Source: Nanobdellota archaeon
GTDB taxonomy: Archaea; Nanobdellota; Nanobdellia; Pacearchaeales; GW2011-AR1
Length of the DNA stretch: 64,000 nt
Direction: 5' to 3'
Assembly (NCBI GenBank): GCA_038045705.1
Contig: JBBSXO010000001.1
Span: 96,001 to 160,000, forward strand
Shown: piece by piece, positions 19,513-50,262 of the stretch
Layout: each line of letters opens with the position of its first letter
How positions within the stretch are numbered: position 1 is the stretch's first letter
The notes under the pieces: model-generated
What the model was told of the DNA's origin: nothing
The model's input: the letters and a program-made list of their open reading frames with translations, nothing else
Database searches by the model: none
Position numbers and translations under genes: made by a program

Positions 19513-22149
19513 TTAAGCCGTAACAACAGTAGCTGCCGTAGCAGTTGTACCTGTCAATTTATGGTTTACGTTAGTCATTGGTTCTTGAGTTGTCAAGTAT
19601 GTTGCTGCGTTAGCAGTATCACCTTGTTCCCAACCACCAACAAGAGTAGCAACCTTAGAACTAGCCCATGGGTTAGCAAATGTTTGGATTATCCATTCAC
19701 CGCTTCCAGCACCACTAGCTGCAGTCCATGAAGCACCACAACCAGCACCGCTCCCTAGTAATGTTGATGCAGCAGTATTTACACAGCTACCTCCAACAAC
19801 GATTAAGTTCTTAGATGACATCGCAGTATTAGCTGACAATTCATCATCCATTATCTTAACATTTCCTAGAGTAGTTGAACTAGATCCAACAGCTAAGCTA
19901 TCAACATATACCTTTGCAGTTGTCTGAGTTTCAGGGTAGCTTATTTTAACGTGGTATTGGTCAGAATCAGATTGATCTGTTTCAACCAATGTTCCCCACT
20001 GATCCATCTTTTGATAAAGTTTATCATTGGTTTCAGTTTGGAATCCAGTATTTCCATAAGCAGTTCCTTTCATGTCGTTATCGCTGTTCCATGAGAAAGA
20101 TGATTCACTCACACTTACTCCAGTATCACTTACTCCTGCTCCTGACGTTTCAACAATCAAAGTGTTGTAGACATCAGCTTCATCTTTTTCTTCGAATAAG
20201 ATGATTGCAGGACGTGAGATAACAGCTCCGCCTTCCATTACATAAACCTTTGTCTCATTTACATTTCCAGTACTTGTAAAGTTAATTGTTAATTGACCAA
20301 CGGTTGCTGTTGCAGAAGATGCTCCATCAGATGCAGTTGTGTTAATTGCTAGTGAGCTTCCAACTGTAAAGTTGTGCAATCCACCAGCATTAGCAAGTGC
20401 AACGTTTGTATATCCATCTCCATCAGGAATCACAGCATTACTTCCCAACAAACCATTCGTACCATCCCATGAGGTTAAGTTTATGGTTATAGGTTCATAG
20501 AATGCTAAGTTAGCACCCTTTGAAGTCTCTATAGTTGGCCATAATATCATATTTGACCCAGTAGAGTCCGGTTGATTGAATCGGACAAATTGACTGCCAT
20601 CACTACTTGGATTCTTAACATAACTAAATGTATAAGAGTTTCCAGCTATATCTATTGTTCCAGATCCCTCAGATGTAGCCTCGCCCTGGGTACTTTCTTG
20701 AGTAACTAAGTTCTTTACTGTAATATAGTCATCACCAAATCCAGTAGTTCCATTTTGGATGCCTGTAACTTCAAGCAAAACTCCTTCGTCTTGGTTACCC
20801 AAAACAACAGAGCCTGACTGATTCACCCGAGCCATTTCAGCAACTTCTAACTCCCAATCATTTCCATCTCCAAGCCAAACACCAGTTCTACCTGAAGACC
20901 TGTTGTTGAGCCACTCCCAATTTTCGAGAGTTTCTCCTTCCCAGCTTGTAAATGTTATGGAAGCCATATCTGTTCCAGATGGTTTGATAAGGATGTCCTC
21001 ACGTTCATCAGTACTCTCCAAACCGGCAGACAAGCTATCAAAGACTAATCTGAAAGATCCATAAACTGGATCAACAAATTCATCTCCTGTCTTGAAAAAG
21101 TCAGCACTTCCATCGTCAGCAAATACTTGGATAGTAAGCTTTGTTATGTTTCCAGGATAAGTTCCTGCAGTTTCAAAGTCTACTTGAGTTCCATCAATTG
21201 CAGTTTCATCTGTTCCCGTTTTAACTTCGCTTCCATCTTGTAATGTTAAGCGGTTAGCTCCAACAACAATCTCTGCTTGAATTACATTCGTAGCAGTTGA
21301 TTCATCTGCAGTATTTACAGCTACTTCTACCCCCATTATTTTCTTGGAAGCAGCTTCGTTAATCTCTTTCTGATCAGATTGACCAGCAGAGTTTGTAACT
21401 TTTACAGTAGCTGCAGTATCAGACGCAGCAACAAGTTCTATAGTATATGTTTCACCCTCAACTTCAACAGCTTTAGATGGAACAGAGCTCGCGCTCCCTA
21501 CACTAAGCTGTAATGTTTCAGCAGATCTGAATAATATTAACTTAGTATCAGATGTAGCAGACGAAACAGTAAAATCTTGACCAAACAAATTTATACTTTC
21601 ACCTTCAGAATCCGCGTGTGTAAAGTTAACAGCTTCATCAAAAGTTACTGTCGTATTGTATAAATAAGTTGCCGCAGTAGTTCCATACAACATACCGACA
21701 CTAGGATCAAAACTAGATGTAGGTTCCTTTGCAAAAATAACTCTTGGGTTTGATCCAAGAACTATTTTGAATTGCGCTTCAGCTTCCACATTTCCAGAGA
21801 ATTCTGTATCTCCGAGAACAGTTGGAAGATTAGAGTCTGTAACTGAGCTTCTAACGGAACTCAATGAGTTGTTTAGTTGAATAGGTGTCGATGAAGTAAA
21901 TAGCTCATAAGCTTCATTACTTGCAGGAGCACCACTTCCACCACTACCAGCAAGAGCAGTACTCAATGCAGTAGATATATCAGTAACAGCGCCTAGATCT
22001 AAAGAATTACCATATACTATAGCTACATCAGCATTACCACTCGAAACGAATGGAGCAGGGAAGTTAGCAGCAGCAGCAAGTGCAACTGTAGATCCAAGCA
22101 TAGCTGTAGAAGCCATAGCAGAGGCAATTTTTCTAAAATTAAATTTCAT
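19513..22149 (-). CDS. Major S-layer protein
   Basis: MKFNFRKIAS signal, FPAPFV, ADVAIVYG, C-terminal NLIVVGGSCVN; strong SD AGGAGGT at 22162-22168. Confidence 0.88.
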   Translation of the reverse strand: MKFNFRKIASAMASTAMLGSTVALAAAANFPAPFVSSGNADVAIVYGNSLDLGAVTDISTALSTALAGSGGSGAPASNEAYELFTSSTPIQLNNSLSSVRSSVTDSNLPTVLGDTEFSGNVEAEAQFKIVLGSNPRVIFAKEPTSSFDPSVGMLYGTTAATYLYNTTVTFDEAVNFTHADSEGESINLFGQDFTVSSATSDTKLILFRSAETLQLSVGSASSVPSKAVEVEGETYTIELVAASDTAATVKVTNSAGQSDQKEINEAASKKIMGVEVAVNTADESTATNVIQAEIVVGANRLTLQDGSEVKTGTDETAIDGTQVDFETAGTYPGNITKLTIQVFADDGSADFFKTGDEFVDPVYGSFRLVFDSLSAGLESTDEREDILIKPSGTDMASITFTSWEGETLENWEWLNNRSSGRTGVWLGDGNDWELEVAEMARVNQSGSVVLGNQDEGVLLEVTGIQNGTTGFGDDYITVKNLVTQESTQGEATSEGSGTIDIAGNSYTFSYVKNPSSDGSQFVRFNQPDSTGSNMILWPTIETSKGANLAFYEPITINLTSWDGTNGLLGSNAVIPDGDGYTNVALANAGGLHNFTVGSSLAINTTASDGASSATATVGQLTINFTSTGNVNETKVYVMEGGAVISRPAIILFEEKDEADVYNTLIVETSGAGVSDTGVSVSESSFSWNSDNDMKGTAYGNTGFQTETNDKLYQKMDQWGTLVETDQSDSDQYHVKISYPETQTTAKVYVDSLAVGSSSTTLGNVKIMDDELSANTAMSSKNLIVVGGSCVNTAASTLLGSGAGCGASWTAASGAGSGEWIIQTFANPWASSKVATLVGGWEQGDTANAATYLTTQEPMTNVNHKLTGTTATAATVVTA

Positions 22150-22532: not shown

Positions 22533-22892
22533 ATGGTCCAAAAACAAAGAATAAAAGAGATAACTATAACTGAAGAGAGAGGAACATTTTCTTCTTTCTT
22601 CAAAAAGTTTTCAAGTGACAAAAACGATTTTGATTTCAAGGGTTTAGATTCATTAAGATCTTTACTTTCAAACGAAAAAGCTAGGATTCTCCATGTTATA
22701 AAATCAAGAAATCCTAAATCAATCTATGATGTTTCTAAGTTGGTAAATAGAGACTTTAAGTCTGTATCTCAAGATATAAAACTCTTAGAAGAGTTTGGTC
22801 TCATAGATTTAATAAAAGAAAGCACCGGAAAAAGAGAAAGATTAAGACCAGTTATCATAATAGACATATTAAAAATAGATATAGTCTTATAA
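22533..22892 (+). CDS. HTH transcriptional regulator (HVO_A0114/COG4190-like)
   Basis: PKSIYDVSKLVNRDFKSVSQDIKLLEEFGLI...RLRP. Confidence 0.85.
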   Translation: MVQKQRIKEITITEERGTFSSFFKKFSSDKNDFDFKGLDSLRSLLSNEKARILHVIKSRNPKSIYDVSKLVNRDFKSVSQDIKLLEEFGLIDLIKESTGKRERLRPVIIIDILKIDIVL

Positions 22893-23399
22893 TTATGAGC
22901 ATAATTTTGCCTGAACAACTATGTTCCCAGGAAACTGAGGTATAAAATAAGAGTTACCTATGTAATTATTGCTACAATTCCCTTGATTTATGGAGAATAT
23001 TTCTTCTCCTTGCCCGCTCGAAGAATTAGAGTTATATTTACCTACAACTTCATATCCTTTGTAAGGGTATTCTGGACCAACTTTCCAAGTAGCATTGAAC
23101 ATGCTTACAATAGCACCTTCAACAGATTCACAAGAATTAGATCCACTTAAGCAAGAGTTATCGAAAGAATGGCATTCCTTTATCAATTCATTAAGTGCAA
23201 GGTTTTTACCGTTTACCCTTATAACACAATCAGTTGTCTGCTCCATAGAACTTTCAATAAACTGGTATAATATCTCGCTATTCTTTTGAACAGGTTCTGG
23301 ATTTCGTAACTTTATTCCTATAAATATAACCAATGCAATAGCTAAAATTACAACAATAAGCACAAAGCCAACTATCTCCTCTTGACCCTTTTTCTTCAT
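22893..23399 (-). CDS. Pilin-like protein, class III signal peptide
   Basis: MKKKG/QEEIVGFVLIVVIL; Cys pairs. Confidence 0.8.
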   Translation of the reverse strand: MKKKGQEEIVGFVLIVVILAIALVIFIGIKLRNPEPVQKNSEILYQFIESSMEQTTDCVIRVNGKNLALNELIKECHSFDNSCLSGSNSCESVEGAIVSMFNATWKVGPEYPYKGYEVVGKYNSNSSSGQGEEIFSINQGNCSNNYIGNSYFIPQFPGNIVVQAKLCS

Positions 23400-23401
23400 A
23401 A

Positions 23402-23920
23402 TTATGATACTCCCTCAAAACCCATCAATATTTTACCAAGTTCACATTTAGTCTGTTTAATCTCATTGTCAAATCTACAAAGAGAAACAAAAGACTCGTA
23501 AGCCTCAAAATCTCCTTTATTTACAAGAGTTATTTCATTACATCGTGGATAACTTTCAGTAGTACACTCGCTTGTTTCATACAATGGATAAACTCTACTA
23601 ATCTTAATTAATGAAACATCAGTCCAAAATCCTTTGTAGGAGTTTCTTTCCTTAAGCAAAAACAATTTATCTAAATCTACACAGGAGCTACAATCATCAG
23701 AACTAATCCAATTAAATTCAGGAGTTCCAGCCATCTTTCTGACTTGTGTTAAAACTGCCTCTTTTCGCAAATCATCTACATCTCCTCTTAAAGAACTAAA
23801 TCTTATAGAAACAAAGAAAACAGAAACTATTCCAAATAGAATAATTATTGCAACTATAATAAAAACCATTTGTTGTATTTTAAACTGACCTTTAGAATAT
23901 TTTACATGAAGCAAGTTCAT
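23402..23920 (-). CDS. Pilin-like protein, class III signal peptide
   Basis: SKG/QFKIQQMVFIIVAIII; SD AGGAGG precedes the ATG at 23920. Confidence 0.78.
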   Translation of the reverse strand: MNLLHVKYSKGQFKIQQMVFIIVAIIILFGIVSVFFVSIRFSSLRGDVDDLRKEAVLTQVRKMAGTPEFNWISSDDCSSCVDLDKLFLLKERNSYKGFWTDVSLIKISRVYPLYETSECTTESYPRCNEITLVNKGDFEAYESFVSLCRFDNEIKQTKCELGKILMGFEGVS

Positions 23921-24839
23921 TATTCCTCCTTTCCAAATCTTTTGCAATAGGGATAACTTGTCTTACAAAATCCCTTGAATTATTTATATTTGCTACAAGG
24001 ATAAAATTTTGTAAATCTGAGACGAGATTATTAGAACAACCACTGCCTTCAACATATATAGCCTTCTTAGAATAAACAACTGCCAGTTCAGAAGCCCTTT
24101 TCATTAATCTTTTGACTTGACACTCATATATTTCATAATCTGAAAGTATTGCACCAAGCATAAGATTGTCCCCATCATAATACATATCTTTTCCAGATTT
24201 ACTTACAACCTTAGACATAGTGTTTACATTAATATCACATCCTATTCTATCAAAACATACTTTAGTTGAATTTGCAGGACAAGATAGGATATTAGTAGAA
24301 ATGTTTATTCCTATATCTTGCTTGCCATCAGCAGACAAATCTAAAATTAACTCTTCAATGTCATTTGTAGGATTAACAAAACAATATTTTTGCCCATAAA
24401 TAGAGATTATATCTCCTATTTTAAAAGGAGCAAATATAGGATTAACCATAACATTTAGTTTATCATTCTTAGTTTCTTCAATCTTTCTAGAAAATATATA
24501 TTTGTTATAAACTGACTTTCTAACGCTTTGTTCACTCCATTCATCTCTTGATTTTGATGCTGTGCTTAATCTTTGTATTCCGAAAGCTCCATCAGTAGAA
24601 CATTCATTGTAAACCTTGGTATCTGTAGCAAATTCAATTACAGAATATTTGTTATCTTCAAGATTTGTTTCAACAGGGTTAAGTAAGTTAGCAAGCTCTC
24701 CTGCAACTAAAGTATCTCTCTTAACATCGCTAGAATTGATTAATTGAGATGTTATATAAATAGCAGAAGCAAGTATCACTGCTCCCGCAATAATAGCGAA
24801 TATCCAACTAAATGTAAAATCTATTCCTTTTTTATTCAT
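23892..24839 (-). CDS. Pilin-like protein, class III signal peptide
   Basis: MNKKG/IDFTFSWIFAIIAGAVIL. Confidence 0.8.
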   Translation of the reverse strand: MNKKGIDFTFSWIFAIIAGAVILASAIYITSQLINSSDVKRDTLVAGELANLLNPVETNLEDNKYSVIEFATDTKVYNECSTDGAFGIQRLSTASKSRDEWSEQSVRKSVYNKYIFSRKIEETKNDKLNVMVNPIFAPFKIGDIISIYGQKYCFVNPTNDIEELILDLSADGKQDIGINISTNILSCPANSTKVCFDRIGCDINVNTMSKVVSKSGKDMYYDGDNLMLGAILSDYEIYECQVKRLMKRASELAVVYSKKAIYVEGSGCSNNLVSDLQNFILVANINNSRDFVRQVIPIAKDLERRNNELASCKIF

Positions 24840-25335
24840 GTTGCACTTTAACAAGAGATTCAAATTCTCCTTTGGACAGCCTTATGTTTACTTTTCTATT
24901 TACAGATTCAAAACAATCAAAAGTTCCAAGAGAAGAAATGTCTATTTTATCTATTTTTTTGAAAGCAAATTCATTAGCTTTTTCAGGGGGATAAATAAAC
25001 ATGTTTGTATTTTCTTGTTGAAATCTTGAAGAGCTTTGTCTTAAAGATTTTAATTGTGAAGTATATCTTCCAGCATCAATATTGTTAGCAATAGATCCAA
25101 AGCAAACAAACTTTACAGAACTAGGAGTTGAAAAACTAACCACTTTATTTGTAGTAGCAGAACTCCAAATATCATTTACTGAATTTTGAAATTCTTCGTA
25201 AAAAAGTCCAATTTCGGCAACGCTTCCAACTTGTAAAAAGATAGTTATTCCGTAAACAGCAACTCCAATAAGTGCAATTATTATGATCACAGAGAAAATC
25301 ATTCCAAATGAGATTTCAATAGATCCCTTTACCAT
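24832..25335 (-). CDS. Pilin-like protein, class III signal peptide
   Basis: MVKG/SIEISFGMIFSVIIII. Confidence 0.8.
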   Translation of the reverse strand: MVKGSIEISFGMIFSVIIIIALIGVAVYGITIFLQVGSVAEIGLFYEEFQNSVNDIWSSATTNKVVSFSTPSSVKFVCFGSIANNIDAGRYTSQLKSLRQSSSRFQQENTNMFIYPPEKANEFAFKKIDKIDISSLGTFDCFESVNRKVNIRLSKGEFESLVKVQHE

Positions 25336-25336
25336 T

Positions 25337-27409
25337 TTATCTTATATTTGTTGCACTAGCTACTAAAGAACAGCTATTAGGTCCAGGCTCATTATCAAAA
25401 GTATCTCTACATTTAATATAATATGCAATATTAGGTTTCCATTCAGCATAATGACTTTTCTTGTTTGAAGTTGAAATATAAAGCAATTCAATCCCTTCAT
25501 CAAAATTAAAGTTACAGCTATTCAAGGAATAAGCACAAGCAGCATCTTCATTAGTAACTATTTTTAAAGCATTATTAGAAGAATCTCTGTAAGCTCTAGT
25601 AATTAAAGGTGCAAATGTATCCACAATAACTGAAAAACTTACTTCAGCCTCAGCAGCATTTCCTCCATAATCAACACATCTAAATTTATAATTATAATTT
25701 CCAGTTGGCAAATTAAGTCTTTGTGAATGTTCAACAGCATCAGTTTCAAACATCAGAACATAACTATCGGGCAATCCAGTAGAGCTAAATGAGCAAATAG
25801 ACACTCCTTCATTTGCCCCATCATCTGTTGTAACTCTCAAATCCACTGGAACTGTATTTGTATTTCCAGTAGCTGTTCCATTAGGAGATACAAAGATTAT
25901 ATTCAACGGTTGCGAACCTATCAATTTATAATTATAACTTGCAACGTTAACATTTCTCTCTTCTTCTGCTTTTGAAGGCTGGTCTTTACATCTTACAAAA
26001 AAGTTGTTTTCCTGTCTATCTACAATTCCATTGAGATTAGTTGAACAGGTATACAATTCACGCGCATTTATTTGAGTGAGAGAAGTAGCACAGCTCATAG
26101 TATTTTCCATAACTGAATATTCTTTACTTTGAGCGCTCCATTTACATGTTGCAGGTTCATTAATGTAAAATTGAACTGGTACAGATTGAACTCCAAATTT
26201 AACATAACTCCCACTAGGAATAGAAGTCTCAACTATTACTGGAGCAGTTGTATCAGGACTAGGGTCAACACATAACTGAACAGCATATTCATCAACATTC
26301 TCATTCCCATTTTTATCTCTGCATCTTACAAAGAAATCATATTTCCCATCTGCTTGTAATTCTGGAAGTTCAGCATTAAGAGAATCTGGCGAAGGCAGAC
26401 TAAATTGTTGGGTATGATTATATAAATACAAATTAGTATTTCCGAAAAGGAATTGCATTTCATCGAATGAGTCTTTATGTTCTAAATCTAACTTACATTG
26501 GCTTGCCTCATTAGTTGTAATTCCAAAAGTAAGTGGTGTAAACGCTTGCAAGCAACCATCTGTAGCACCATTTCTAACTATTTTAGTTCCTAGTGAAGTT
26601 GGTCTTGTTTCATGATTTGTATATCTATGGTTTTCAGTCAATGGTTCTGTCCAAGGAGTTATCGTCGGAGAAGTAGCATCATTAGGGTTTACCCAGACAC
26701 ATTTCTCATCAGTAGTTCCAACGTTTACAAGTTCACAAGCTTGTCCTAAACTCCTGCAACGATATTCAGAGCAAGGTCTAAAGGAATCTTTGTTACACTC
26801 TTCGCAATCATTCCCACCAATTGGAGCTTCATAAGGTAAACATTGGAAATTTACAACTTTAGAAGATTCTTTTTTATACATAATCGCATAAACAACGACG
26901 GCAATTCCAATAGCCCACAATGTTGCTCCTCCAGAAGCTCCTAAAAAGTTTGGATCTGCAAAACCCAAACTATTAAACAAGTTAGTGCTACCTTGAGCCT
27001 CTAAAAACCCAAACCTTCCAATTGCAACACCAATTCCTAAAGCAGCAGATGCAGCCTTTTTTTGATTATCATCGAGCCCAAGAAAGTCTCCTGCAAAATA
27101 AACAACTCCATAAGCAATTCCTCCCCAAATTAGCCCGGATAATAAACTACCCACAAAACCTTCAATACCCAAAGGTGTTCTTCCAAGAATATCAGTGTTT
27201 GGTTCAGGAGGTGGAGGTTCAGGACTAGGACTTGCTTTGAGCCCTGCATTTCCAGATCTTGCAGCTAATAACGCTCCAGGACCTACACCTTGTGCACTAG
27301 TCAATAAACTCTCATGAATCAAAAAAGCAAAACTAAAGACCGCTAAGATTATAATTAAAATATGCGAAATTGCAATACTTTTTAGAACACCACCTCTTCG
27401 ATAAAACAT
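25337..27409 (-). CDS. Secreted Cys-rich protein with Gly-rich hydrophobic segment and Ig-like repeats; paralog of the C-terminal half of 31995-35654
   Basis: Signal ending LTSAQ; GLIWGGIAYG...LGIGVAIG; FQCLPYEAPIGGNDC; repeated TNE.A.C...Y.VRC.D..GN. Confidence 0.8.
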   Translation of the reverse strand: MFYRRGGVLKSIAISHILIIILAVFSFAFLIHESLLTSAQGVGPGALLAARSGNAGLKASPSPEPPPPEPNTDILGRTPLGIEGFVGSLLSGLIWGGIAYGVVYFAGDFLGLDDNQKKAASAALGIGVAIGRFGFLEAQGSTNLFNSLGFADPNFLGASGGATLWAIGIAVVVYAIMYKKESSKVVNFQCLPYEAPIGGNDCEECNKDSFRPCSEYRCRSLGQACELVNVGTTDEKCVWVNPNDATSPTITPWTEPLTENHRYTNHETRPTSLGTKIVRNGATDGCLQAFTPLTFGITTNEASQCKLDLEHKDSFDEMQFLFGNTNLYLYNHTQQFSLPSPDSLNAELPELQADGKYDFFVRCRDKNGNENVDEYAVQLCVDPSPDTTAPVIVETSIPSGSYVKFGVQSVPVQFYINEPATCKWSAQSKEYSVMENTMSCATSLTQINARELYTCSTNLNGIVDRQENNFFVRCKDQPSKAEEERNVNVASYNYKLIGSQPLNIIFVSPNGTATGNTNTVPVDLRVTTDDGANEGVSICSFSSTGLPDSYVLMFETDAVEHSQRLNLPTGNYNYKFRCVDYGGNAAEAEVSFSVIVDTFAPLITRAYRDSSNNALKIVTNEDAACAYSLNSCNFNFDEGIELLYISTSNKKSHYAEWKPNIAYYIKCRDTFDNEPGPNSCSLVASATNIR

Positions 27410-27471
27410 ACTTGCTTAATGAAATAATTCTTTATAAATATTAGTAAAACTAAAAAGCTAAAATATTCTAA

Positions 27472-27963
27472 CTATCTTTCCATAATCTCAACATTATAAC
27501 CGCCCATCGCATTTCTATCAAGGGTAAAATAAAGATAAACACTTGTAGGGCTATCAAACGAAATAGAACTATGGGGAGAAGAGTTACTTAATTGTAAGAT
27601 TCTAGTATCAATTATTCTTTCATCCCCTGTTCCATTATATTTAACATAAATTCCAAATGTTTTTCCTTGACAGTTTTGCTGAGTTGCTCCAAAGACAAAT
27701 TCTTCTCCTACATAAAATGTAGTCCTTCCTTTATTTACAATCTCAGTTCTTGGATCCAAGAAACCATCTCCATTACTATCTTTAAAATCACTCCCAATAA
27801 AAGGCATACAAGTGATGTTATTATTGCCTTGACCTCTAGCAGTCACACGTGCATGATGATCTGCAATAATAAGACCTCCAAGAAGCTGAGCACAACCCGT
27901 AAGAGGCAAAGTAGCCCCTAAGATCATCCCCGCCAAGCCTAGATCTTTAGTCCTAGATTTCAT
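27472..27963 (-). CDS. Hypothetical lipoprotein
   Basis: Lipobox LPLTGC; DSNGDGFLD Ca-binding-like loop; own TATA/BRE. Confidence 0.65.
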   Translation of the reverse strand: MKSRTKDLGLAGMILGATLPLTGCAQLLGGLIIADHHARVTARGQGNNNITCMPFIGSDFKDSNGDGFLDPRTEIVNKGRTTFYVGEEFVFGATQQNCQGKTFGIYVKYNGTGDERIIDTRILQLSNSSPHSSISFDSPTSVYLYFTLDRNAMGGYNVEIMER

Positions 27964-28029
27964 TTTCAGGTACGATTCATAGATTAAACGAATATTTAAA
28001 TCTTTCTGTTACTTAATAGTTACAAAAAT

Positions 28030-29043
28030 TCAAAACAAGCTATCTCTAGAAAAGAAAATTCCAAGTAAAATTATAATTATTTGGAAAATCCATATAGCAT
28101 AAACTGCATTTTTTTCTGTAGACCTAATTCCTATTTTTTTCAAAACTAAAATAGAAAGATGATTCAAACTGTAAATTTTATTATGCTGATTTTCCAGTGT
28201 CCCATCTTTCATAGGTTTACCGAAAGAACTTTTTTTAAGTTTTCCACGAGATTTTAATATGACTTCAATAATATAAGGGATGTAAAAGAAAATAGCAATC
28301 TTCTCAAAATTGCCTACAATTGCAATAGCCGCAATCATAACACCAACAGAATATGTCATAACATCTCCAGGAAAGACTCTGGCAGGAAATTTATTGAATT
28401 TCAAAAATCCAATTAGCGCGAGAACCATACATAAACAAACTATTGAAAGCCATGCGCTTCCATTAATGTAAGAGACAAAAGCCATTCCCGATAGCAAAAT
28501 TATTCCCTGACCAGCTTCAAGACCATTGAACCCAGCAAGCATGTTAAAAGTAGTTGTAGTTGCAACAACCCCTAAAGGTATCAAAAACAAAGGATAAACT
28601 AAACCCCAATCAATGACTCCAAAAATTGGAAAATTCATTGAACTTTCTCCAGCTTTTATTGCAATAAGAGGTATCGCTCCAAAGATAGCCAGTAAAATTC
28701 TCACTCTCCCAGAGAGTCCTCCACGCCTCCACCCGAATAAATCATCTATGAAACCAATAAATCCCATAAAGATAACCATAACTAGAATTACAAATATTTC
28801 TAAAAGAAAACCATTCGAACTTTCAAGCAAAAAGACCCTATATGTAACATAACTAAGAACACTTAACAAAAATGCAAGCAAAACAATCAAACCACCAGAG
28901 CCAGAGACTTTCTCACTATCTATTTTATTCATATCCTTCCACACAAGGCCCACAAATCTTACCTTACGTATCCACCAAGGCATCAAAGCTAAAACTGTAA
29001 TCAAGCTTATTGCCAGAGGCAACAACAAAATATAAGATTTCAT
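28030..29043 (-). CDS. UDP-GlcNAc:dolichol-phosphate GlcNAc-1-P transferase (AglH/GPT, glycosyltransferase family 4)
   Basis: KDMNK, GFIDDL, FNMLAGFNGLE, PARVFPGD. Confidence 0.9.
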   Translation of the reverse strand: MKSYILLLPLAISLITVLALMPWWIRKVRFVGLVWKDMNKIDSEKVSGSGGLIVLLAFLLSVLSYVTYRVFLLESSNGFLLEIFVILVMVIFMGFIGFIDDLFGWRRGGLSGRVRILLAIFGAIPLIAIKAGESSMNFPIFGVIDWGLVYPLFLIPLGVVATTTTFNMLAGFNGLEAGQGIILLSGMAFVSYINGSAWLSIVCLCMVLALIGFLKFNKFPARVFPGDVMTYSVGVMIAAIAIVGNFEKIAIFFYIPYIIEVILKSRGKLKKSSFGKPMKDGTLENQHNKIYSLNHLSILVLKKIGIRSTEKNAVYAIWIFQIIIILLGIFFSRDSLF

Positions 29044-29081
29044 TCAAAGAACAGCTATTTATTATTTATAAGACTTATCAA

Positions 29082-30632
29082 TTATTCTTGTCCGCCTATA
29101 ACTATTTTGTAACCTTTATTGTAACCTTCTTTACCTAACCAATTTAAGCTAGGTCCGCAATCACCTAACATCTTACACAAATCTGCTTTCTCTTTTTGCC
29201 AATTCTCTTCAAGACATTCACAACCAGAAACGCATTTTTCCCCACCATCAAACAATCCTTTTTCAAATTTAACAACACAAACATTATTTCCTAAAGAACA
29301 TATGTTTGATGTTTCAGCATCACTCCAGAAGTTAAATCCTGGTTTATTTTGAGGGAAACAAGTTCCTACTCTATCTTGAGTCTGGTTTTGTAAAGCTTGC
29401 AATAATACATCTTTCCAAACACAGTCTCTAATATCTTCATTTTCACAAGATGACTTGTCAATTTGATTTACGCAATCCTGCCATCTGTTTACTTTACAGG
29501 CTGCTTGTGAAAAATCATTTATAGTATCAGAAATACATTCCTCCGCTCTGAAGTCCTCACATTGTTCTAAAACTTCTTCCCCATTTATGCAAACATGTTT
29601 ATAGAATCTGCTTCCTACAGTATTATCTGTATTTCCAAAGCCTCCTGCATCATTGTAAACACACCAACTTTCTCCATGTCTGTAATTTTTACCATCTTGA
29701 GTATTTTTACAATTTAAATCAGCACAGATATTATCTCCATAAGTTGGACTCTTTCCAGCATCATTTTCGCTTCGGCAAATGCTACCCTGTAAATAATCGC
29801 AATTTCCACATGAAGAACTCAAAGCATTTCCATTTTCAGGATTACATGAGTTATCTACAGTTATTACATTGCTCCAATATAATTGATCTTCTAGCTTAGA
29901 AGAGTCATAAATATTTGCAGGATTCCCACAAGTATCTACAAAATAAACTCCATCTTTTCCAGGAACACAAGTAGTCTTAGTACTTGGTCCGCATATAGTC
30001 CCTAGTTCTTCAGCAGAACATAATTTCCCTGCGTAGAATGTCCCACCAACAATAGAAGCATTACTAGTTTGAGTATTACATTCAGCCCTAGTTCCGAATT
30101 TGCAAGTATCTTCAAACTCGAATTCATACACACATGCACCAACTTCTTGCTGTTGAACTTTTTCTATACAAGCAAGTTCACTTCCAACACTAGTATCATA
30201 ATTTGTCTCTAAACCCAAATAAGAACTTAATCTTTTGCATCTAACAAGAGAAACATAAGCTGCTTGATCTCCAAGAATACAACATCCCAAAGAACACTGA
30301 GGTGGTTCTTCTTCACTCCATACACCACCATTAGCATTACAAACTAGTTGAGGCGTATTATCAAAGCAAGTTCCTTCAGTAGAATCATAGCAAGTTCCAG
30401 CCTTACAATAACTTGTAGATTCACAACTTGTAGGTACTTGTCTACTTCCAGGCTTACATTCAGAAGAAGGAACATTTTGACAAAAAGCTCCTGTATCTGT
30501 TTGCTCGCAACAAACAGTTGCAAGTTGATTTCCAACATTAGGATTATTAGGTGTTCCAGTCTGCTGTGCAATAACAAAACTAGCAAAGGCTAAAAGTATT
30601 ATTCCAAAAAGTAAAATTATCTTTTTATTCAT
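29082..30632 (-). CDS. Secreted Cys-rich protein; paralog of the N-terminal half of 31995-35654
   Basis: Signal MNKKII...VIAQQ; GTCYDS, GCCILG, GKDGVYFVDTCGNPANIYDSSKL, HGESWC, LGDCG. Confidence 0.8.
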   Translation of the reverse strand: MNKKIILLFGIILLAFASFVIAQQTGTPNNPNVGNQLATVCCEQTDTGAFCQNVPSSECKPGSRQVPTSCESTSYCKAGTCYDSTEGTCFDNTPQLVCNANGGVWSEEEPPQCSLGCCILGDQAAYVSLVRCKRLSSYLGLETNYDTSVGSELACIEKVQQQEVGACVYEFEFEDTCKFGTRAECNTQTSNASIVGGTFYAGKLCSAEELGTICGPSTKTTCVPGKDGVYFVDTCGNPANIYDSSKLEDQLYWSNVITVDNSCNPENGNALSSSCGNCDYLQGSICRSENDAGKSPTYGDNICADLNCKNTQDGKNYRHGESWCVYNDAGGFGNTDNTVGSRFYKHVCINGEEVLEQCEDFRAEECISDTINDFSQAACKVNRWQDCVNQIDKSSCENEDIRDCVWKDVLLQALQNQTQDRVGTCFPQNKPGFNFWSDAETSNICSLGNNVCVVKFEKGLFDGGEKCVSGCECLEENWQKEKADLCKMLGDCGPSLNWLGKEGYNKGYKIVIGGQE

Positions 30633-31387
30633 GCTAATCCTTGGGGCCAAACAAGACTCCTAGTTGCAAAATCAAATTTATCTTCGCTGGTGACATCACT
30701 TAGTTGATAAATTGTTGAACCATCATCACGCCTGGTCTTTTCAATTACAAGATTAGGATAATAAGAAATATATAAACTTGTCTCGCTATCTCCAAAAGTT
30801 GATTCATACTGTATGATATTAACTGCAGTATTTATCAAAGTGTACCAGTTAGAATCAATTGCAACAGAAAATTTTTGGAAAGTTTGAGTATCTTCTTTTA
30901 TTAAAGTAAGTGGAGCAACAAAATCCACATATATATTTTCAGGCACAATGCCTACACTAATGTTACTAGTACCACTTCTAACTTCATAACCCTTTCTTTC
31001 ATATTGGTCTTTCAAATCTTCAAAACATTGTTTTGCTCTAGGTTCAATATGTTTTTTTATTTCTTCTTGAACATGCCTCAATAAAAGAGGTTGTTGAACA
31101 GAACAAGGTGTATAAAATTGAGAAGTATAACACAAATATTGCAATTTCATATCATTATACATTGCATAATTATCCGGATTAGTATATCCGCCTTGAACAC
31201 TTAAAACATCTTTAATATTTGTAATTTCAGGTTCTATACAGCTCCTCAAATAAGAGCTAGGATTTACACTTGAAGAAAAAACATTTGCTTGAGGAAAAGC
31301 AAAGATAACAATTATTACAGCAACAACAATAATTGCAAGTATGACAAAAATAGTGACTTGTCCTTTTCTATCATCTCTTTTCATCAA
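30629..31387 (-). CDS. Pilin-like protein, class III signal peptide; paralog of 35645-36409
   Basis: RKG/QVTIFVILAIIVV; YLRSCIE; QGG; YLCY; FATR. Confidence 0.82.
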   Translation of the reverse strand: MMKRDDRKGQVTIFVILAIIVVAVIIVIFAFPQANVFSSSVNPSSYLRSCIEPEITNIKDVLSVQGGYTNPDNYAMYNDMKLQYLCYTSQFYTPCSVQQPLLLRHVQEEIKKHIEPRAKQCFEDLKDQYERKGYEVRSGTSNISVGIVPENIYVDFVAPLTLIKEDTQTFQKFSVAIDSNWYTLINTAVNIIQYESTFGDSETSLYISYYPNLVIEKTRRDDGSTIYQLSDVTSEDKFDFATRSLVWPQGLA

Positions 31388-31496
31388 TCTTTAAGAGATT
31401 TTTTGTTTATAAATATAGTGAAAGACTTTGAAATTTTATGAGTCTTTCACTAATAGAAAGGAATTCTCTTTTCTATAATTGCTTGAAATCCTTTTC

Positions 31497-31994
31497 TTAC
31501 AGTAATTCTTTTGAGTCAACTAGATAATGAACTGGAAATTGCATTTTTACATCTCCTCTTTTAATAACTACATATGCTTCATTTACTCTTGCACCATGAT
31601 TTTGGATAACTTCTGCAGTTTCTCTTATACTTCCTCCAGTAGTAAACACATCATCAACTATAGCAACTAAATCATCTTTTTTAGGTATATATCCTTCTAT
31701 CCATTTTCTTAAGCCATGCTTTTGAGGACTATCTCTGACTATAGCAAGAGGAATATTTTTTACAAGCGAAACAGTTGTTGCAAGAGAAATTCCCCCGTAT
31801 CCTTTTCCAACAACACAAGTGGAATTTTTATTTATTTTTTCAGCAATTGCTTCGCCAATTTTCTTCAAGAGCTTAGGGTCACCATAAGCTTTCTTAACAT
31901 CAAAATAAGCAGTACTCTCTTCTCTCCCTCTTAATCTAACATTTCCTCTAACAACAATATCTGCTTCTCTTAATAATTTGACTAATTCAGTCAT
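31497..31994 (-). CDS. pyrE: Orotate phosphoribosyltransferase-like (type I PRTase)
   Basis: YFDVKKAYGDP, KHGLRKWIEG, VAIVDDVFTTGGS. Confidence 0.85.
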   Translation of the reverse strand: MTELVKLLREADIVVRGNVRLRGREESTAYFDVKKAYGDPKLLKKIGEAIAEKINKNSTCVVGKGYGGISLATTVSLVKNIPLAIVRDSPQKHGLRKWIEGYIPKKDDLVAIVDDVFTTGGSIRETAEVIQNHGARVNEAYVVIKRGDVKMQFPVHYLVDSKELL

Positions 31995-34900
31995 TTAATA
32001 TCCACCACTAACTGTCAAACAAGATCCTACATTTCCAAATGTATCTCTACACTTTATCTTATAAGTTAATCCATTAGAATAAGGCATTGTATGAACTCTA
32101 CTTGCACCACTTAAAGCTGTGCCTGTTTCAAACTCAAATGAGCATGTAGAAGTTGAGTATTCACAAATAGAAGCCTCATTAGTTATCACATTCAAACTAT
32201 TTCCTGAATTGTATACTCTTGTTATCAAAGGTCCAGTATTATCAACTTCAATAATAAATTGAGCACTTCCTTCAACAATATTTCCAGCTCTATCTGTGCA
32301 CCTTAATCTTATGTCATAACTTCCAGCAAACAAAGTATCCCAAGTTTGTCTGTGGTTACTCAAACTTGTTGTAAAGAAATCAATATAACTATTTCCATCA
32401 AAAGAATATTTACAGGATGCCTCGCCAGACTCTATTCCTCCAGCAGTTACAACTTCCAAAGTAACGGAAACAGGTTCGGTTGCAGATAGTATTGTTCTAT
32501 CATCGGGAGTAACAGAACTTATTGTCAAAGGAGTAGTTGTCCTTCTAACTTCATAAGGAATACTTTGAGTATTTTTGTTTCTTCCTTCTATTAGAGTAAC
32601 TGAAGATTGTTGAATATTTACTCCGAGCCATGGCTTATCAGCACACCTGAAATAATAATTATTAGTATCTTGTGAAATAGGTAGTGTTGCACTGCACAAC
32701 CAACCACGAAGAGTTGATTGACTTATAGCATTATCACAATTAGCTTCATTTTCCATTAATTCATATTCCTGATCAGTTGTGCTGAATTTACAAGTAGCAG
32801 GCTCATCTGTATAAAATTGTAAATTATAAGAACTTGAATTCAAACCAGTAATTCCAGGGCTTTCAGGACTAAATCTTGATATCTTCGGAGGTTGCAAGTC
32901 GTCTTCAGGAGAAACACAAAATCTTATATCATAAGCATTATCATTTGAGTTCCCACTTTTATCATCACATAATACATATAAATTGTAATCTCCTCTTCTA
33001 CTAGGATTGATTCCAGGCACTTCAAGAGAGTCAAGAGTAGGCATAGCAGTGTTTTCATTATGTCTTGAAACATAAGCATTAGCACTACTGTCAAAATAAG
33101 TATCGTCCATTTCTTCATAGTTGCTAGGTCTGGTGGAAGATATTTTACATTGGCTTGGCTCGTTTGTCACAATTCCAAAAGTAACGACAGAATATTCTTG
33201 TAAACATCCATCTCCGCTTGAGCTTTTTATTTCAACACCATTTGTAAATTCTTCATAAGTAAATCCTTGAGCAAGAGAAGTCTGATTAAATGAGATATCT
33301 GGAGCAGTAGCATCATTTGGATTGATATTAACACAAGCTTCATTTTCAGTTTCAGGATTTATGAGTTCACATGTTTTTCCAAGACTAGCACATTTGTAAG
33401 CAGTGCATTCTACCCCTAGAGAATCACATTTAGCACAGTTATCTCCACCAGAAGGAGGTTGCCAAGGCAAACATTTAAATTCAACTTTCTTTTCCCTATA
33501 TTCGCCAACACCAGCAACCGAGAGTACTACTATAGCTACAACAATTATTATTGCCGCAATCCATCCGACAACAGGTGCAACCGCTAGAGTTGGAACAAGT
33601 TCAACTAATCCAATATAAAGAAGTCCAGCTGCAGCACCAATAACAACTGCAGTAGTTAGTTCATCTCCTTCTAACCCTAAAGCCAGCCCTATAATATAAC
33701 CTATTCCTGCACCAACTAATGCTCCATTTGCAGCTCCTGTCCATCCAGTAACATGGAACCATGAAGGAGCAAGAATAGCAGATCCACTAGATAATGTTGC
33801 CAGAGCTCCAGCAGCTCCCAAACCTAGTTGACTAATTTGTCTTGCAAGAGCATTAGGGTCTTCAAAATTAAAATCTGTTCCGAATAAAGCTTCAATTTGT
33901 TCTTCAGTAAAAGTAGAAACTCTTTGTCCAGGTTTTGGAGTAATATACTTTTTCAAACCTTCCACATAATCATCAGAGATTTTAGGGCTTCTATCTCCGC
34001 TTGTCGAATATCCCTTTCCAAGTTCTCCTGCCAAGTTTACATGACTTCCACAATCACCTAAGCTCATACATAGATTATTCATTGTTTCTGCAAATTTTGC
34101 CTCTTTACATTCACAGTTTATTTTGCAAGTCCACCTTCCTTCTATATTCTTTTTTTCATAATATGTGCAAGTCTGCGTTGCAGCTTTACATATAGACTCT
34201 GAATCTGGCTGAGGCTCATCAGCTAATTCAAGTCCGGGAGGATACTTAGGAACACAAACATCAAACTTCCATTTATCAATTTCAACATGTTTCAAATAAC
34301 AATCAGGGCTTTCCTCACATTTAGCAAGTTTATCAGCATTTTCATTATAGCTCGTACACAAACTTCCGGTATTTGTTCTACATTGAGCATTTGTAAAACT
34401 ATCAGTAACATCTTGTTCAACACAAACACCATTTCTATATTCTGCGCAAGGCTCAAGTCTTACTTCTCCTTCAGAACAAAATTTTTTATAATGTCTGCTT
34501 CCCGGAACATCAACTGCCCTTTCTTCATTACTGGCATTCTGACCATCAAGTCCAATCCATGAATCAAAAGCACACCAACTTTCCCCATGTTCTTTTCTCA
34601 CTCCATTGTCAATGCATGCCAAATCTTTACAGACATATTGTCCATAGATAGATGTTTCATCGAGTCCTGACTGTGGAGACCCGCAAGTATTTCCAGCAAG
34701 ATAATCGCAGTTTCCACATCTTTGTTGATTTGCCAAACTATCACTTCCAGAAGATAAAGAACAAATTCGTTCAATAGGCACTATCGAACTCCAATAAGCT
34801 AAATTATTTAGTTTGCTTGAGTCATAAATATTAGCTTTATTACCGCAACTATCTACAAAATAGATTCCATCTTTACCATCAAAACATTGAGTATTTTGAG

Positions 34901-35654
34901 TCATTTCACATTTAGTATTAAGATCAGGATTAGTGCATAATTGGCCAACGTAAAAATCTCCTCCATTAGTCAAACAACTAACTTCAGTTGTAAATTGACA
35001 ATTGTATTTATCAAGTTCAGGCAAAAATTCTAAAACACAAGCCCCTTCTCTTTGAGTTCTAACTCTAGATAGACATTGAATCTCACTTTGAATTTGTGGA
35101 TCCCACTCAGTAGGCGCTCCTGAACTCTGACGCAGATTAGTACATTCTTGACTTGTCGCAAATCTAGCTTGACTTGCTCCACCATTTCCATCTGGTCCAA
35201 TTAAACAACATCCTCTATTGCATTGAACCGGAGTTTGAGCAGACCAAACTCCCCCTTCATCCTCGCAAGAAGCTCTAGGAGTTCCAGCATTACATAGCCC
35301 AAGACTAGAATCATAACAAGTTCCTAATTGGCATGATGAAAATTCAGTTCTTCTTCCAGGAAAACAAGAGCTAGTGCATTGAGAGTCACATGTCTCGGAA
35401 GGGTACTCTTGACAATAAGAACCAGAATTGTCTACCAAACAAGTCTTAACAGAAGTTTGCGCAGAAACAAGACCATATGACAAATAGTTAAGAACTTTTT
35501 CTCTAATTAATAAAATAAATTTAGATTCTTTGCTTTCAACAGGTAAGTATTCAATTAAAGAATTAGTCTCACTCATAATATATGCAAAAGCAATTCCACT
35601 AAGCAAAATCAAAGTAATTTCAAATAATCCAATTACTTTTTTAGTTAAAACCAT
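31995..35654 (-). CDS. Giant secreted Cys-rich protein with central Gly/Ala-rich hydrophobic hairpin and C-terminal Ig-like repeats
   Basis: N-terminal TM/signal ending LVSAQ; Cys-rich domain; GAANGALVGAGIGYIIGLALG...GWIAAIIIVVAIVV; start moved to MVLTKK. Confidence 0.82.
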   Translation of the reverse strand: MVLTKKVIGLFEITLILLSGIAFAYIMSETNSLIEYLPVESKESKFILLIREKVLNYLSYGLVSAQTSVKTCLVDNSGSYCQEYPSETCDSQCTSSCFPGRRTEFSSCQLGTCYDSSLGLCNAGTPRASCEDEGGVWSAQTPVQCNRGCCLIGPDGNGGASQARFATSQECTNLRQSSGAPTEWDPQIQSEIQCLSRVRTQREGACVLEFLPELDKYNCQFTTEVSCLTNGGDFYVGQLCTNPDLNTKCEMTQNTQCFDGKDGIYFVDSCGNKANIYDSSKLNNLAYWSSIVPIERICSLSSGSDSLANQQRCGNCDYLAGNTCGSPQSGLDETSIYGQYVCKDLACIDNGVRKEHGESWCAFDSWIGLDGQNASNEERAVDVPGSRHYKKFCSEGEVRLEPCAEYRNGVCVEQDVTDSFTNAQCRTNTGSLCTSYNENADKLAKCEESPDCYLKHVEIDKWKFDVCVPKYPPGLELADEPQPDSESICKAATQTCTYYEKKNIEGRWTCKINCECKEAKFAETMNNLCMSLGDCGSHVNLAGELGKGYSTSGDRSPKISDDYVEGLKKYITPKPGQRVSTFTEEQIEALFGTDFNFEDPNALARQISQLGLGAAGALATLSSGSAILAPSWFHVTGWTGAANGALVGAGIGYIIGLALGLEGDELTTAVVIGAAAGLLYIGLVELVPTLAVAPVVGWIAAIIIVVAIVVLSVAGVGEYREKKVEFKCLPWQPPSGGDNCAKCDSLGVECTAYKCASLGKTCELINPETENEACVNINPNDATAPDISFNQTSLAQGFTYEEFTNGVEIKSSSGDGCLQEYSVVTFGIVTNEPSQCKISSTRPSNYEEMDDTYFDSSANAYVSRHNENTAMPTLDSLEVPGINPSRRGDYNLYVLCDDKSGNSNDNAYDIRFCVSPEDDLQPPKISRFSPESPGITGLNSSSYNLQFYTDEPATCKFSTTDQEYELMENEANCDNAISQSTLRGWLCSATLPISQDTNNYYFRCADKPWLGVNIQQSSVTLIEGRNKNTQSIPYEVRRTTTPLTISSVTPDDRTILSATEPVSVTLEVVTAGGIESGEASCKYSFDGNSYIDFFTTSLSNHRQTWDTLFAGSYDIRLRCTDRAGNIVEGSAQFIIEVDNTGPLITRVYNSGNSLNVITNEASICEYSTSTCSFEFETGTALSGASRVHTMPYSNGLTYKIKCRDTFGNVGSCLTVSGGY

Positions 35655-36409
35655 CCAGCAGGTAAAGCACACCCCCTTGTAGCCATCGTTAAACTCTCAC
35701 CTGTCTTTTTATTTTTGACAGTATAAATCTTTGTTGTATCTTCCATCATATAGACTCTTATGTCATACTCTGGGTAAAGTATCATAAATCCATCATTGCT
35801 AAAGTAACACCATTTAGCTTCTTGAGCAACTATTTCATTTACAACAAAACCAATACTTTGTATTTTAGTAAAAACAAAAGTATCAAATCTACTAAATTTA
35901 CGAGAATTATCTGATTTAGTTATAGTAATATCTCCCTCCAAAGAGATTTCAACGACTTCAGGTTTGAATTTAGCTTCGACTTTAACTTGCCCAGAGTCAG
36001 AGATTTCATAATTTCTCGCAGTTAATTCTTCTTTTAATGCAGAAAAACATTGTTGAGCATCATCTTGAATATTTTCATTAAATTCTTTTTCAATTTGAGT
36101 TACATAAAGTGGAAATTGATTAATACAAGGTTCAAAATTATTTATATTTTTACACAAATAAGGAATGTTTTTTGTTCTATATAAAACAGTATCTTCAGCA
36201 GAAACAAGACCACCATTAGAAAGCATTTCATCAATAAGCAATTCAGCCCGTTCATTAATGCAAGTTCTCAAATAACCTTCAGGATTATCAAAATCCTGCT
36301 CTCTTAATGAGACACTTCCCCTATTTATTAATATCACAACAAAAACAACTGCTACAATAATTATTGCAATAATTACAAAAACAGTAACTTGTCCTTTTTT
36401 TTCCATCAT
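35645..36409 (-). CDS. Pilin-like protein, class III signal peptide
   Basis: KKG/QVTVFVIIAIIIV; YLRTCIN; NGG; YLC; MATR. Confidence 0.82.
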   Translation of the reverse strand: MMEKKGQVTVFVIIAIIIVAVVFVVILINRGSVSLREQDFDNPEGYLRTCINERAELLIDEMLSNGGLVSAEDTVLYRTKNIPYLCKNINNFEPCINQFPLYVTQIEKEFNENIQDDAQQCFSALKEELTARNYEISDSGQVKVEAKFKPEVVEISLEGDITITKSDNSRKFSRFDTFVFTKIQSIGFVVNEIVAQEAKWCYFSNDGFMILYPEYDIRVYMMEDTTKIYTVKNKKTGESLTMATRGCALPAGWF

Positions 36410-50217: not shown

Positions 50218-50262
50218 TTTTAGTACCATTATGTTTAAAAATTAGAAACTTTCACCTTGACC

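Follow-up and report, generated by a model that had tools for sequence, protein, structure and literature searches.

A conserved gene cluster of Pace- and Woesearchaeota-type DPANN archaea associates pilin-like genes with genes for giant cysteine-rich surface proteins

Pacearchaeota and Woesearchaeota are abundant and uncultivated archaea. In a cultured member of the phylum, the available excerpt of Johnson et al. 2024 (PMC11420986) reports a large, cone-shaped attachment organelle seen by cryo-electron tomography, and it does not name the genes for it. How such cells touch their hosts is a question posed in molecular terms by a locus in the genome of a Nanobdellota archaeon (assembly GCA_038045705.1; G000 among our genomes), in which six genes for pilin-like proteins lie among genes for giant cysteine-rich surface proteins: what is such a combination for, and does it reach into another cell? 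The locus is contained in a stretch of 64,000 nucleotides (contig JBBSXO010000001.1, positions 96,001 to 160,000), which we refer to as the window. The window is core chromosome, carrying genes for ribosomal proteins, FtsZ, SepF, Spt5, PCNA and primase, and the genome as a whole amounts to 844 kb at 91% completeness. We found that the locus is part of a conserved gene cluster of Pace-/Woesearchaeota-type DPANN archaea, probably one of the cell envelope. As to its function, we lean, tentatively, toward a self-anchored surface contact or envelope complex and away from a device that inserts into the membrane of a host.

The cluster runs from 36409 down to 22893 as 12 open reading frames (ORFs), all on the minus strand and overlapping or separated by very short gaps. 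It begins with pilA1 (254 amino acids; 35645..36409), which overlaps by 28 nt the gene for a fused giant protein of 1,225 amino acids (31995..35672). A second gene of the same family, pilA2 (252 amino acids; 30629..31387), overlaps by 22 nt the gene for a protein of 522 amino acids (29082..30650; 516 amino acids if read from the Met at residue 7). The gene for a third large protein, of 690 amino acids (25337..27409), heads four more pilin-like genes named for the lengths of their products: p167 (24832..25335), p323 (23892..24863, with the likely start Met at 24839), p181 (23402..23947) and p168 (22893..23399). The three large proteins are rich in cysteine, with 66, 43 and 21 residues, respectively. 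An earlier reading of the stretch, made from its letters and ORFs (the sequence-only reading), had described a tight, co-oriented locus with six class III signal genes, a QVT-type pilin gene directly before each of two large cysteine-rich genes, and a third large gene at the head of four pilin genes. That description holds. Its further claim that the three large proteins are mutual paralogues does not, since the 1,225-amino-acid protein is a fusion of an N-half like the 522-amino-acid protein and a C-half like the 690-amino-acid protein. Residues 69 to 555 of the fused giant (34008..35468) align with the 522-amino-acid ORF (35% identity, E 4e-81), and residues 633 to 1214 align with the 690-amino-acid ORF (34% identity, E 2e-92). 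The two smaller ORFs are therefore the pieces of a split second copy, and the locus encodes this two-part protein twice, once fused and once split.

The two halves differ in character. The N-half of the fused form follows a signal anchor and is cysteine-rich, with nearly all of its cysteines invariant among 60 homologues, and its split counterpart starts with a Sec signal peptide but lacks a membrane anchor. In the C-part, a hydrophobic region is followed by an ectodomain (31998..33485) that contains a juxtamembrane module with seven cysteines (residues 730-789) and four immunoglobulin (Ig)-like repeats (residues 790-926, 927-1042, 1043-1146 and 1147-1225), which are homologous to one another (hhalign 83-98%). 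The split C-half shows a signal peptide and then the same succession of hydrophobic helices, 7-Cys module and Ig-like repeats. Against Big_13 and DUF4625 the repeats scored 24.3-26.4 bits, below the cut-off of 27. The Cys-rich half matched nothing in Pfam, NCBIfam or the PDB sequence set, and profile searches of these collections found no relatives of the giant and pilin-like families, nor a PilY1/PilC C-terminal propeller or VWA domain in the 1,225-, 522- and 690-amino-acid proteins. An ESM Atlas look-up for the locus proteins returned only clusters called 'hypothetical protein', without models.

These unannotated families are large. Representative clusters of the fused giant family numbered 2578 at E ≤ 1e-3 and 1454 at the stricter E ≤ 1e-30, most members being 1200-1350 amino acids long, and the 522-amino-acid form had 1585 homologues, every one named 'hypothetical' and all in Pacearchaeota or Nanoarchaeota records. 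Among 301 phylum genomes, one of them flagged unpublished, the giant-protein profile matched 198 at E ≤ 1e-5; many of these matches were weak, and they were sparse in some families. A search with a single protein had suggested absence from some genomes of the same order, but the profile found divergent members in five of five, and we claim no absence. Distant giants of 1688 and 1850 amino acids have about 80 cysteines, a signal peptide and one transmembrane segment near the C terminus followed by a Lys-rich stop-transfer sequence. The adhesin-type domains TSP3 and Big_13 occur in distant giants, and one distant giant aligns over the Ig-like repeats (90%, E 1.9e-6). Another, of 1212 amino acids (L107), has no detectable homology to the fused-giant profile.

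The six pilin-like ORFs have in common a short basic leader, a Lys or Arg followed by Gly or Ala ([KR]-[GA]), usually a Gln (or Ser or Ile) and about 20 hydrophobic residues. With a slash at the predicted cleavage site, their N-terminal motifs are MMEKKG/QVTVFVI in pilA1, RKG/QVTIFVI in pilA2, MVKG/SIEISFGMIF in p167, MNKKG/IDFTFSW in p323, SKG/QFKIQQM in p181 and MKKKG/QEEIVGF in p168. This class III motif is kept position by position in the orthologues of each family across 16 relatives. pilA2 is homologous to pilA1 (27% identity, E 2e-25) and p167 is a paralogue of the N-terminal part of p323, while the five pilin-like families have only the N terminus in common. Curated pilin families of Pfam and NCBIfam (Class_IIIsignal, Pilin_N, TadE and similar) matched none of the window proteins at E ≤ 0.1, and none of 71 pilA members or 22 p323 members at E ≤ 0.01; for comparison, the pilins of two other loci of this genome, on contigs C5 and C3, do match Pilin_N and TadE. 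An AlphaFold2 model of pilA1 (predicted local distance difference test [pLDDT] 89.3, predicted TM-score 0.76) placed a hydrophobic helix at residues 5-28, then a linker of pLDDT <50 and an alpha/beta domain with two long helices. The model had no Foldseek match in the PDB at E ≤ 1e-3, the top Z in an exhaustive VIA search was 5.8, no better than noise (pseudopilin pair 2ret_A, Z 4.6), and a viral library gave matches only at TM ≤ 0.21. pilA1 is thus pilin-like in its signal, with a modelled fold that appears to lack known relatives and does not resemble the classic continuous helix on a beta-sheet. A third pilA paralogue is encoded elsewhere in the genome (L094:4946-6796, contig C9). It is a 616-amino-acid protein starting MRKG/QVTVFVI, homologous to pilA over its first 215 residues (hhalign 98.5%, E 3.9e-15) and carrying a 400-amino-acid extension. 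Its gene is unlinked to any giant gene and adjoins ribosomal protein genes and the gene for a 784-amino-acid Cys-rich surface protein.

Is the association of these genes more than a local accident? We surveyed 70 loci from public metagenome-assembled genomes titled Pacearchaeota, Woesearchaeota or Nanoarchaeota, plus one titled Parvarchaeum, with ORFs labelled by iterated profiles. A pilA-family gene lay directly upstream of 96 of the 107 N-domain genes that had upstream room (at least 800 bp), namely 52 of 57 fused genes and 44 of 50 N-only genes, which bears out the linkage that the sequence-only reading had drawn from one genome. Downstream of 29 C-only genes with room we found p167/p323 in 11 cases, a pilA gene in 4 and no labelled gene in 14. 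The partners have also kept to their own kind. On a tree of 94 pilA proteins the partner type (fused or split) changed twice, versus a mean of 31 when labels were shuffled, and 0 of 500 shuffles was as low. The N-domain and C-domain trees required three and six changes, and these few arise because some relatives hold tandem fused giants. Since each genome contributes both types, the split is not just the shared ancestry of whole genomes. Two modules are therefore ancient: module A, a pilA-A gene with a fused giant, and module B, a pilA-B gene with an N-only gene, often a lipoprotein gene, and a C-only gene. In three of the relatives (L010, L090 and L084), a tandem of two or three fused giant genes takes the place of the fused and split pair.

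The four-gene block has a second constant neighbour, which lies beyond the coordinates of the sequence-only reading. At 19513..22149 on the minus strand, the window encodes an 878-amino-acid surface-layer (S-layer) protein (S_layer_C, 26.6 bits versus a cut-off of 23.9) that has a signal peptide and no transmembrane anchor. In every locus of this clade that could be checked (12 of 12), the p167-p323-p181-p168 block directly precedes this gene and shares its strand. The 12 are the window, L008, L016, L031, three unlinked blocks and five p323/S-layer pairs. The unlinked blocks come from five genomes in which the block is away from the C-only gene; all five have one p323 homologue elsewhere, and in the three such places retrieved the block is intact and followed by the S-layer gene (3/3). 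In the pairs, from five further genomes, p323 and the S-layer gene stand 1.7-3 kb apart on one strand (5/5). One locus, L075, is arranged differently, with its S-layer gene upstream of module A. The conserved neighbourhood therefore extends to the S-layer gene, to which the cluster is tied as closely as to any pilus.

Loci of more distant families suggest which of these associations is oldest. Four such loci hold one or more giant proteins, then p167, p323, p181 and p168, then further class-III-like ORFs, and two of the four have in front a pilA-like gene of 417-418 amino acids whose product is homologous to the pilA profile (95%, E 2.4e-8). No S-layer match was found within the stretches retrieved for these four, with a profile from the window's clade that may miss distant S-layer proteins. 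Because the distant loci share this order, the oldest unit is a pilA-like gene, a giant gene and the four pilin-like genes, the block following the giant gene across the phylum, and the duplication, the splitting and the S-layer adjacency are features of the clade that holds the window. Of 61 sampled phylum genomes, 51 gave one gene each with the p323 profile, and families in which the giant profile is sparse are among them.

We then consider how the giants sit in a membrane, the point on which any reading of their function turns. The sequence-only reading had placed an internal Gly/Ala-rich hydrophobic hairpin in two of the large proteins. Its positions hold, at 33507..33839 in the fused giant (residues 612-722) and at 26876..27163 in the split C-half (residues 83-178), but the two-helix hairpin does not, because hydropathy resolves four helices. 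As individual sequences gave anything from 2 to 6 transmembrane helices, column-wise hydropathy over the 60 homologues was used for the fused giant. The four predicted helices are H1 (residues 612-636), H2 (642-667), H3 (671-693) and H4 (701-722), with an acidic turn of three residues (668-670) between H2 and H3. H2 has conserved Gly at every fourth residue (650, 654, 658, 662 and 666), a glycine-zipper pattern (conserved Gly at i and i+4); enrichment of GxxxG overall is mild (median z 0.95). H4 has a column mean Kyte-Doolittle hydropathy of >3 and is followed by a Lys/Arg-rich stretch. N-only and C-only proteins begin with signal peptides ending V-S-A or V-I-A before a Gln, and the fused form has a related signal anchor. 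As the helices of both the fused form and the C-half thus follow a Sec signal peptide or signal anchor, insertion into the producer's own membrane is to be expected.

The cysteine counts offer a second line of argument. They are odd in N-only proteins (48/50 locus ORFs and 109/118 database homologues) and in C-only proteins (27/28 locus ORFs), and even in fused proteins (53/58 locus ORFs and 109/119 database homologues), and they shift by two, as in 41/43/45, 21/23 or 62/64/66/68. Members of the pilin-like families have even counts in 94-100% of cases, versus 58% in a lipoprotein control. Two odd halves that make an even whole imply that all cysteines are probably paired, in an all-disulfide ectodomain with one disulfide bridging the N-half and the C-half. 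From such a bridge it would follow that both halves are extracellular, as the sequence-only reading had proposed for the two flanks of the hydrophobic region, and that the number of membrane crossings made by the hydrophobic part is even. Two VKOR genes and one DsbA-like gene (Thioredoxin_4) are present in the genome, at G000:C3:2763-3125, C7:32595-33071 and C8:12893-13381, and they suggest that this archaeon, for all the small size of its genome, has a system for forming disulfides outside the cytoplasm. The parity rule is a simple argument, from sequence, for topology and for the linkage of subunits.

The modules have not evolved at the same rate. Identities within the genus and to other genera were 76-79% and 56-65% for the 522-amino-acid protein and 74-84% and 44-53% for pilA2, compared to 64-72% and 41-44% for the 1,225-amino-acid protein and 71-78% and 34-43% for pilA1. 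For PCNA and primase the corresponding figures were 92-95% and 67-73%, and 69-78% and 53-59%. Module B therefore equals a replication protein in its conservation, and module A changes more quickly. Rapid divergence in the manner of host-range determinants is seen in neither, as would suit a structural role or a conserved binding partner.

The machinery that could process and assemble pilin-like proteins is encoded outside the window, as the sequence-only reading had supposed. The window contains no T2SSE ATPase and no Peptidase_A24, and profile searches of the genome found a single Peptidase_A24 gene together with three genes for T2SSE and four for T2SSF, spread over contigs C3, C4 and C5. Each T2SSE locus has its own pilin-like genes, and those of C5 and C3 have two T2SSF platform genes each. 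The C3 locus (the three loci on C3, C4 and C5 are L091-L093) also encodes a KaiC-like ATPase and a 1013-amino-acid class III protein with a VWA domain. T2SSE was present in 300 of 301 sampled phylum genomes, two of them flagged unpublished. This count sits oddly with the available portion of a recent census of archaeal type IV filaments (PLoS Genet 2026, PMC13705601), which states that filaments are uncommon in DPANN. In another clade, an ORF of 217-240 amino acids beside an AI-2E transporter gene upstream of the locus was rejected as a prepilin peptidase; it had no Pfam match and is unlike this genome's Peptidase_A24.

How might these parts act together? In the account we tentatively favor, the cluster would form two units, one consisting of two paralogous modules, each with a pilA-family protein of ~250 amino acids and a giant disulfide-rich surface protein, and the other of the block of four further pilin-like genes. 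The giant would be exported by Sec, its four Gly-rich hydrophobic helices would stay in the producer's own membrane, and both ectodomains would fold outside, aided by the VKOR and DsbA-like oxidoreductases. The pilin-like proteins, cut by the genome's single prepilin peptidase, could build a scaffold rooted in the membrane, or a short pseudopilus, and one of the three type IV filament ATPase/platform sets from other parts of the genome might or might not take part. This scaffold would bind the giant ectodomain and present it at or through the S-layer for cell-to-cell contact. The account predicts cleavage of the pilin-like proteins at K-G/Q, one disulfide joining the halves of the giant, and specific pairs of pilA protein and N-half.

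Several observations weigh against this account. pilA1 matches no pilin above noise and its helix is set off by a low-confidence linker, so that filament formation finds no support in the modelled fold. The p323 family was detected more widely than the giant family, and the two units may therefore work independently. By the positive-inside rule, the Lys/Arg cluster after H4 puts the C-half in the cytoplasm, in conflict with the parity argument, and the proposed four-helix topology and half-to-half contact draw on hydropathy and cysteine parity. Evolution about as slow as that of primase would be unusual for host-recognition adhesins. No ATPase or platform gene was found in the 67 of 140 large neighboring ORFs that were scanned, the neighbors being housekeeping genes. 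One of two main rivals is a role in envelope architecture, in which the four pilin-like proteins, and perhaps the giants, would be membrane-rooted pillars or anchors that tether and space an S-layer protein without an anchor of its own, much as SlaB holds SlaA in Sulfolobales. The constant position of the block before the S-layer gene, even in the three loci unlinked from giant genes, the lack of a hydrophobic anchor in a secreted S-layer protein, the breadth of the p323 family, the slow, housekeeping-like evolution and the core chromosome setting all speak for it. Yet adjacency alone is no proof of binding, the oldest conserved neighbor of the block is a giant adhesin-like gene, and the four distant loci continue with more pilin-like genes and gave no S-layer match (with the reservation about the clade-derived profile given above). 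We regard it as possible, if on balance unlikely.

That the cluster serves a true extended type IV pilus, its filament primed by the block as four core minor pilins and its priming or tip complex formed, in the manner of PilY1, by pilA and giant without insertion into a host membrane, is the other main rival and seems to us doubtful. Four co-transcribed pilin-like genes beside a gene for a large non-pilin surface protein do recall the bacterial fimU-pilVWXY1E arrangement; the class III motifs are conserved, the block is followed in distant loci by further small pilin-like genes, a prepilin peptidase and three type IV filament systems are encoded in the genome, and T2SSE is nearly universal in the phylum. 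The giants, however, are membrane-anchored, which makes them a poor fit to a protein carried off on a filament tip, no major pilin is identifiable in the locus, the scanned neighborhood holds no linked machinery gene, and the modelled fold of pilA1 is not pilin-like.

The sequence-only reading had gone further, to a tip complex delivered by a pilus, with a Gly/Ala-rich hairpin that would enter the membrane of the host and act there as a pore or translocator. The parity argument, which would set the hydrophobic region between two ectodomains, and the glycine-zipper pattern in H2 both suit this proposal, as does the need of DPANN cells for host contact, a cytoplasmic bridge having been seen in the cultured relative according to the excerpt of PMC11420986. 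A marginal profile match to the translocator AopB (3wxx_B) over the hydrophobic region might be added, but at E 0.28, with an alignment accuracy of 0.52 and a bias of 9.4, it was not significant and was rejected as compositional. Against the proposal, H4 has the hydropathy of a permanent anchor, a Sec signal precedes the region, amphipathic helices of a shielding kind are not evident, and GxxxG is only mildly enriched. Moreover, the plain single anchor at the C terminus of distant homologues makes self-anchoring the simplest reading. The hydrophobic part is thus best read as the protein's own membrane anchor, the outcome that the sequence-only reading had itself named as contrary to its model, and this is better supported than insertion into a host membrane, which we consider highly unlikely. 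The earlier observation is real and far beyond chance, and its interpretation is half right. A broader proposal, and one we regard as very doubtful, is that the operon of pilA-like, giant and four pilin-like genes might be the host-attachment apparatus of Pace-/Woesearchaeota and an archaeal counterpart of minor-pilin/PilY1 priming complexes, in which a disulfide-locked adhesin would be driven across the S-layer on a stalk formed by a pseudopilus and the glycine-zipper four-helix module would oligomerize into the portal of a cell-to-cell bridge.

Three unrelated genes, which the sequence-only reading had passed over, break up the cluster. A phosphoribosyltransferase gene (165 amino acids; 31497..31994; Pribosyltran E 2.9e-10) is a passenger between the modules and occupies the same position in only some relatives (loci L007 and L018). 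A GT4 glycosyltransferase gene (337 amino acids; 28030..29043; Glycos_transf_4 E 7.4e-31) is at its position only in close relatives and is an insertion in this genus. Between the split N-half and C-half lies a gene for a 163-amino-acid lipoprotein with the lipobox LTGC (27472..27963), whose family had 23 ORFs in the 70-locus survey and stands at the N-half/C-half junction in many loci. The opposite (plus) strand encodes, between p168 and the S-layer gene, a 119-amino-acid winged-helix protein (HVO_A0114 family; 22533..22892; PF25212 E 1.1e-16). It is matched by an ORF of ~119 amino acids at the same place in many relatives, and it may regulate the S-layer or pilin-like genes. Two more large surface-type proteins are encoded near the cluster. 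One is a 1145-amino-acid Laminin_G_3 protein (39426-42863, minus strand), conserved in relatives upstream of primase, and the other, of 696 amino acids (14842-16932, plus strand), has weak matches to DUF4625, MG2 and NPCBM_assoc. Two plus-strand genes encode bacterial-type domains in this archaeon, a 227-amino-acid protein with a Bac_DnaA_C helix-turn-helix domain (50257-50940; E 4.2e-21) and a 358-amino-acid RelA_SpoT-domain protein (4153-5229; E 9.5e-20).

Among known systems, the nearest in layout are the bacterial core minor pilins and PilY1, encoded in type IVa systems by fimU-pilVWXY1E, and GspH-I-J-K of type II secretion systems. The resemblance lies in four pilin-like genes that adjoin the gene for a large non-pilin surface protein, in class III N termini and in assembly machinery encoded elsewhere. 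It does not extend to sequence or, judging by the pilA1 model, to fold; the large protein here is transmembrane-anchored and Cys-rich where PilY1 is a beta-propeller adhesin, the large gene has pilA, a fifth pilin-like gene, as its partner, and the system is archaeal, with its block adjoining an S-layer gene. Type III secretion translocators such as AopB, YopB and IpaB likewise have a Gly/Ala-rich hydrophobic helical region inside a larger exported protein. Here, however, there are four predicted helices, the last strongly hydrophobic, they follow a Sec signal, and there are no chaperone or injectisome genes. The bindosome (Bas system) of Sulfolobus consists of class-III-signal proteins that serve as surface-anchored binding proteins rather than filaments. 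It resembles our cluster in placing class III signals on proteins far larger than typical pilins and in a surface role without need of a long filament, and differs in its substrate-binding-protein domains and linked Bas-like genes, neither of which was found here in Pfam searches.

Closer to these archaea, the available portion of the filament census (PMC13705601) describes a subsystem 4A/4B with a PilY-like adhesin (arCOG03511). As described there, those loci also link a pilin set to an adhesin-like protein, but they adjoin an ATPase and platform proteins, which this locus does not. Our literature search, in a limited collection, found no paper on this locus or these families. The accessible part of Castelle et al. 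2021 (PMC8204110) lists as module 98 a set of 51 families, largely uncharacterized in function, that are specific to Pacearchaeota and Woesearchaeota; most are without domains and predicted to be membrane or extracellular proteins, and the list is given in bulk, without sequences, operon structure or function. The median length of one of its families, fam00969 (GH23, murein-transglycosylase-like), equals that of a 1947-amino-acid ORF with a basic leader and hydrophobic N terminus at G000:C3:34161-40004, a likeness by length alone. The families of our cluster have the same lineage range as module 98, and several of its listed families match them in size, with one transmembrane helix (163-171, 247 and 300 amino acids), a likeness of size only. 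The cluster described here brings together unannotated families that occur across the phylum in a clear architecture, and these are concrete candidates for the contact or envelope machinery of Pace- and Woesearchaeota.

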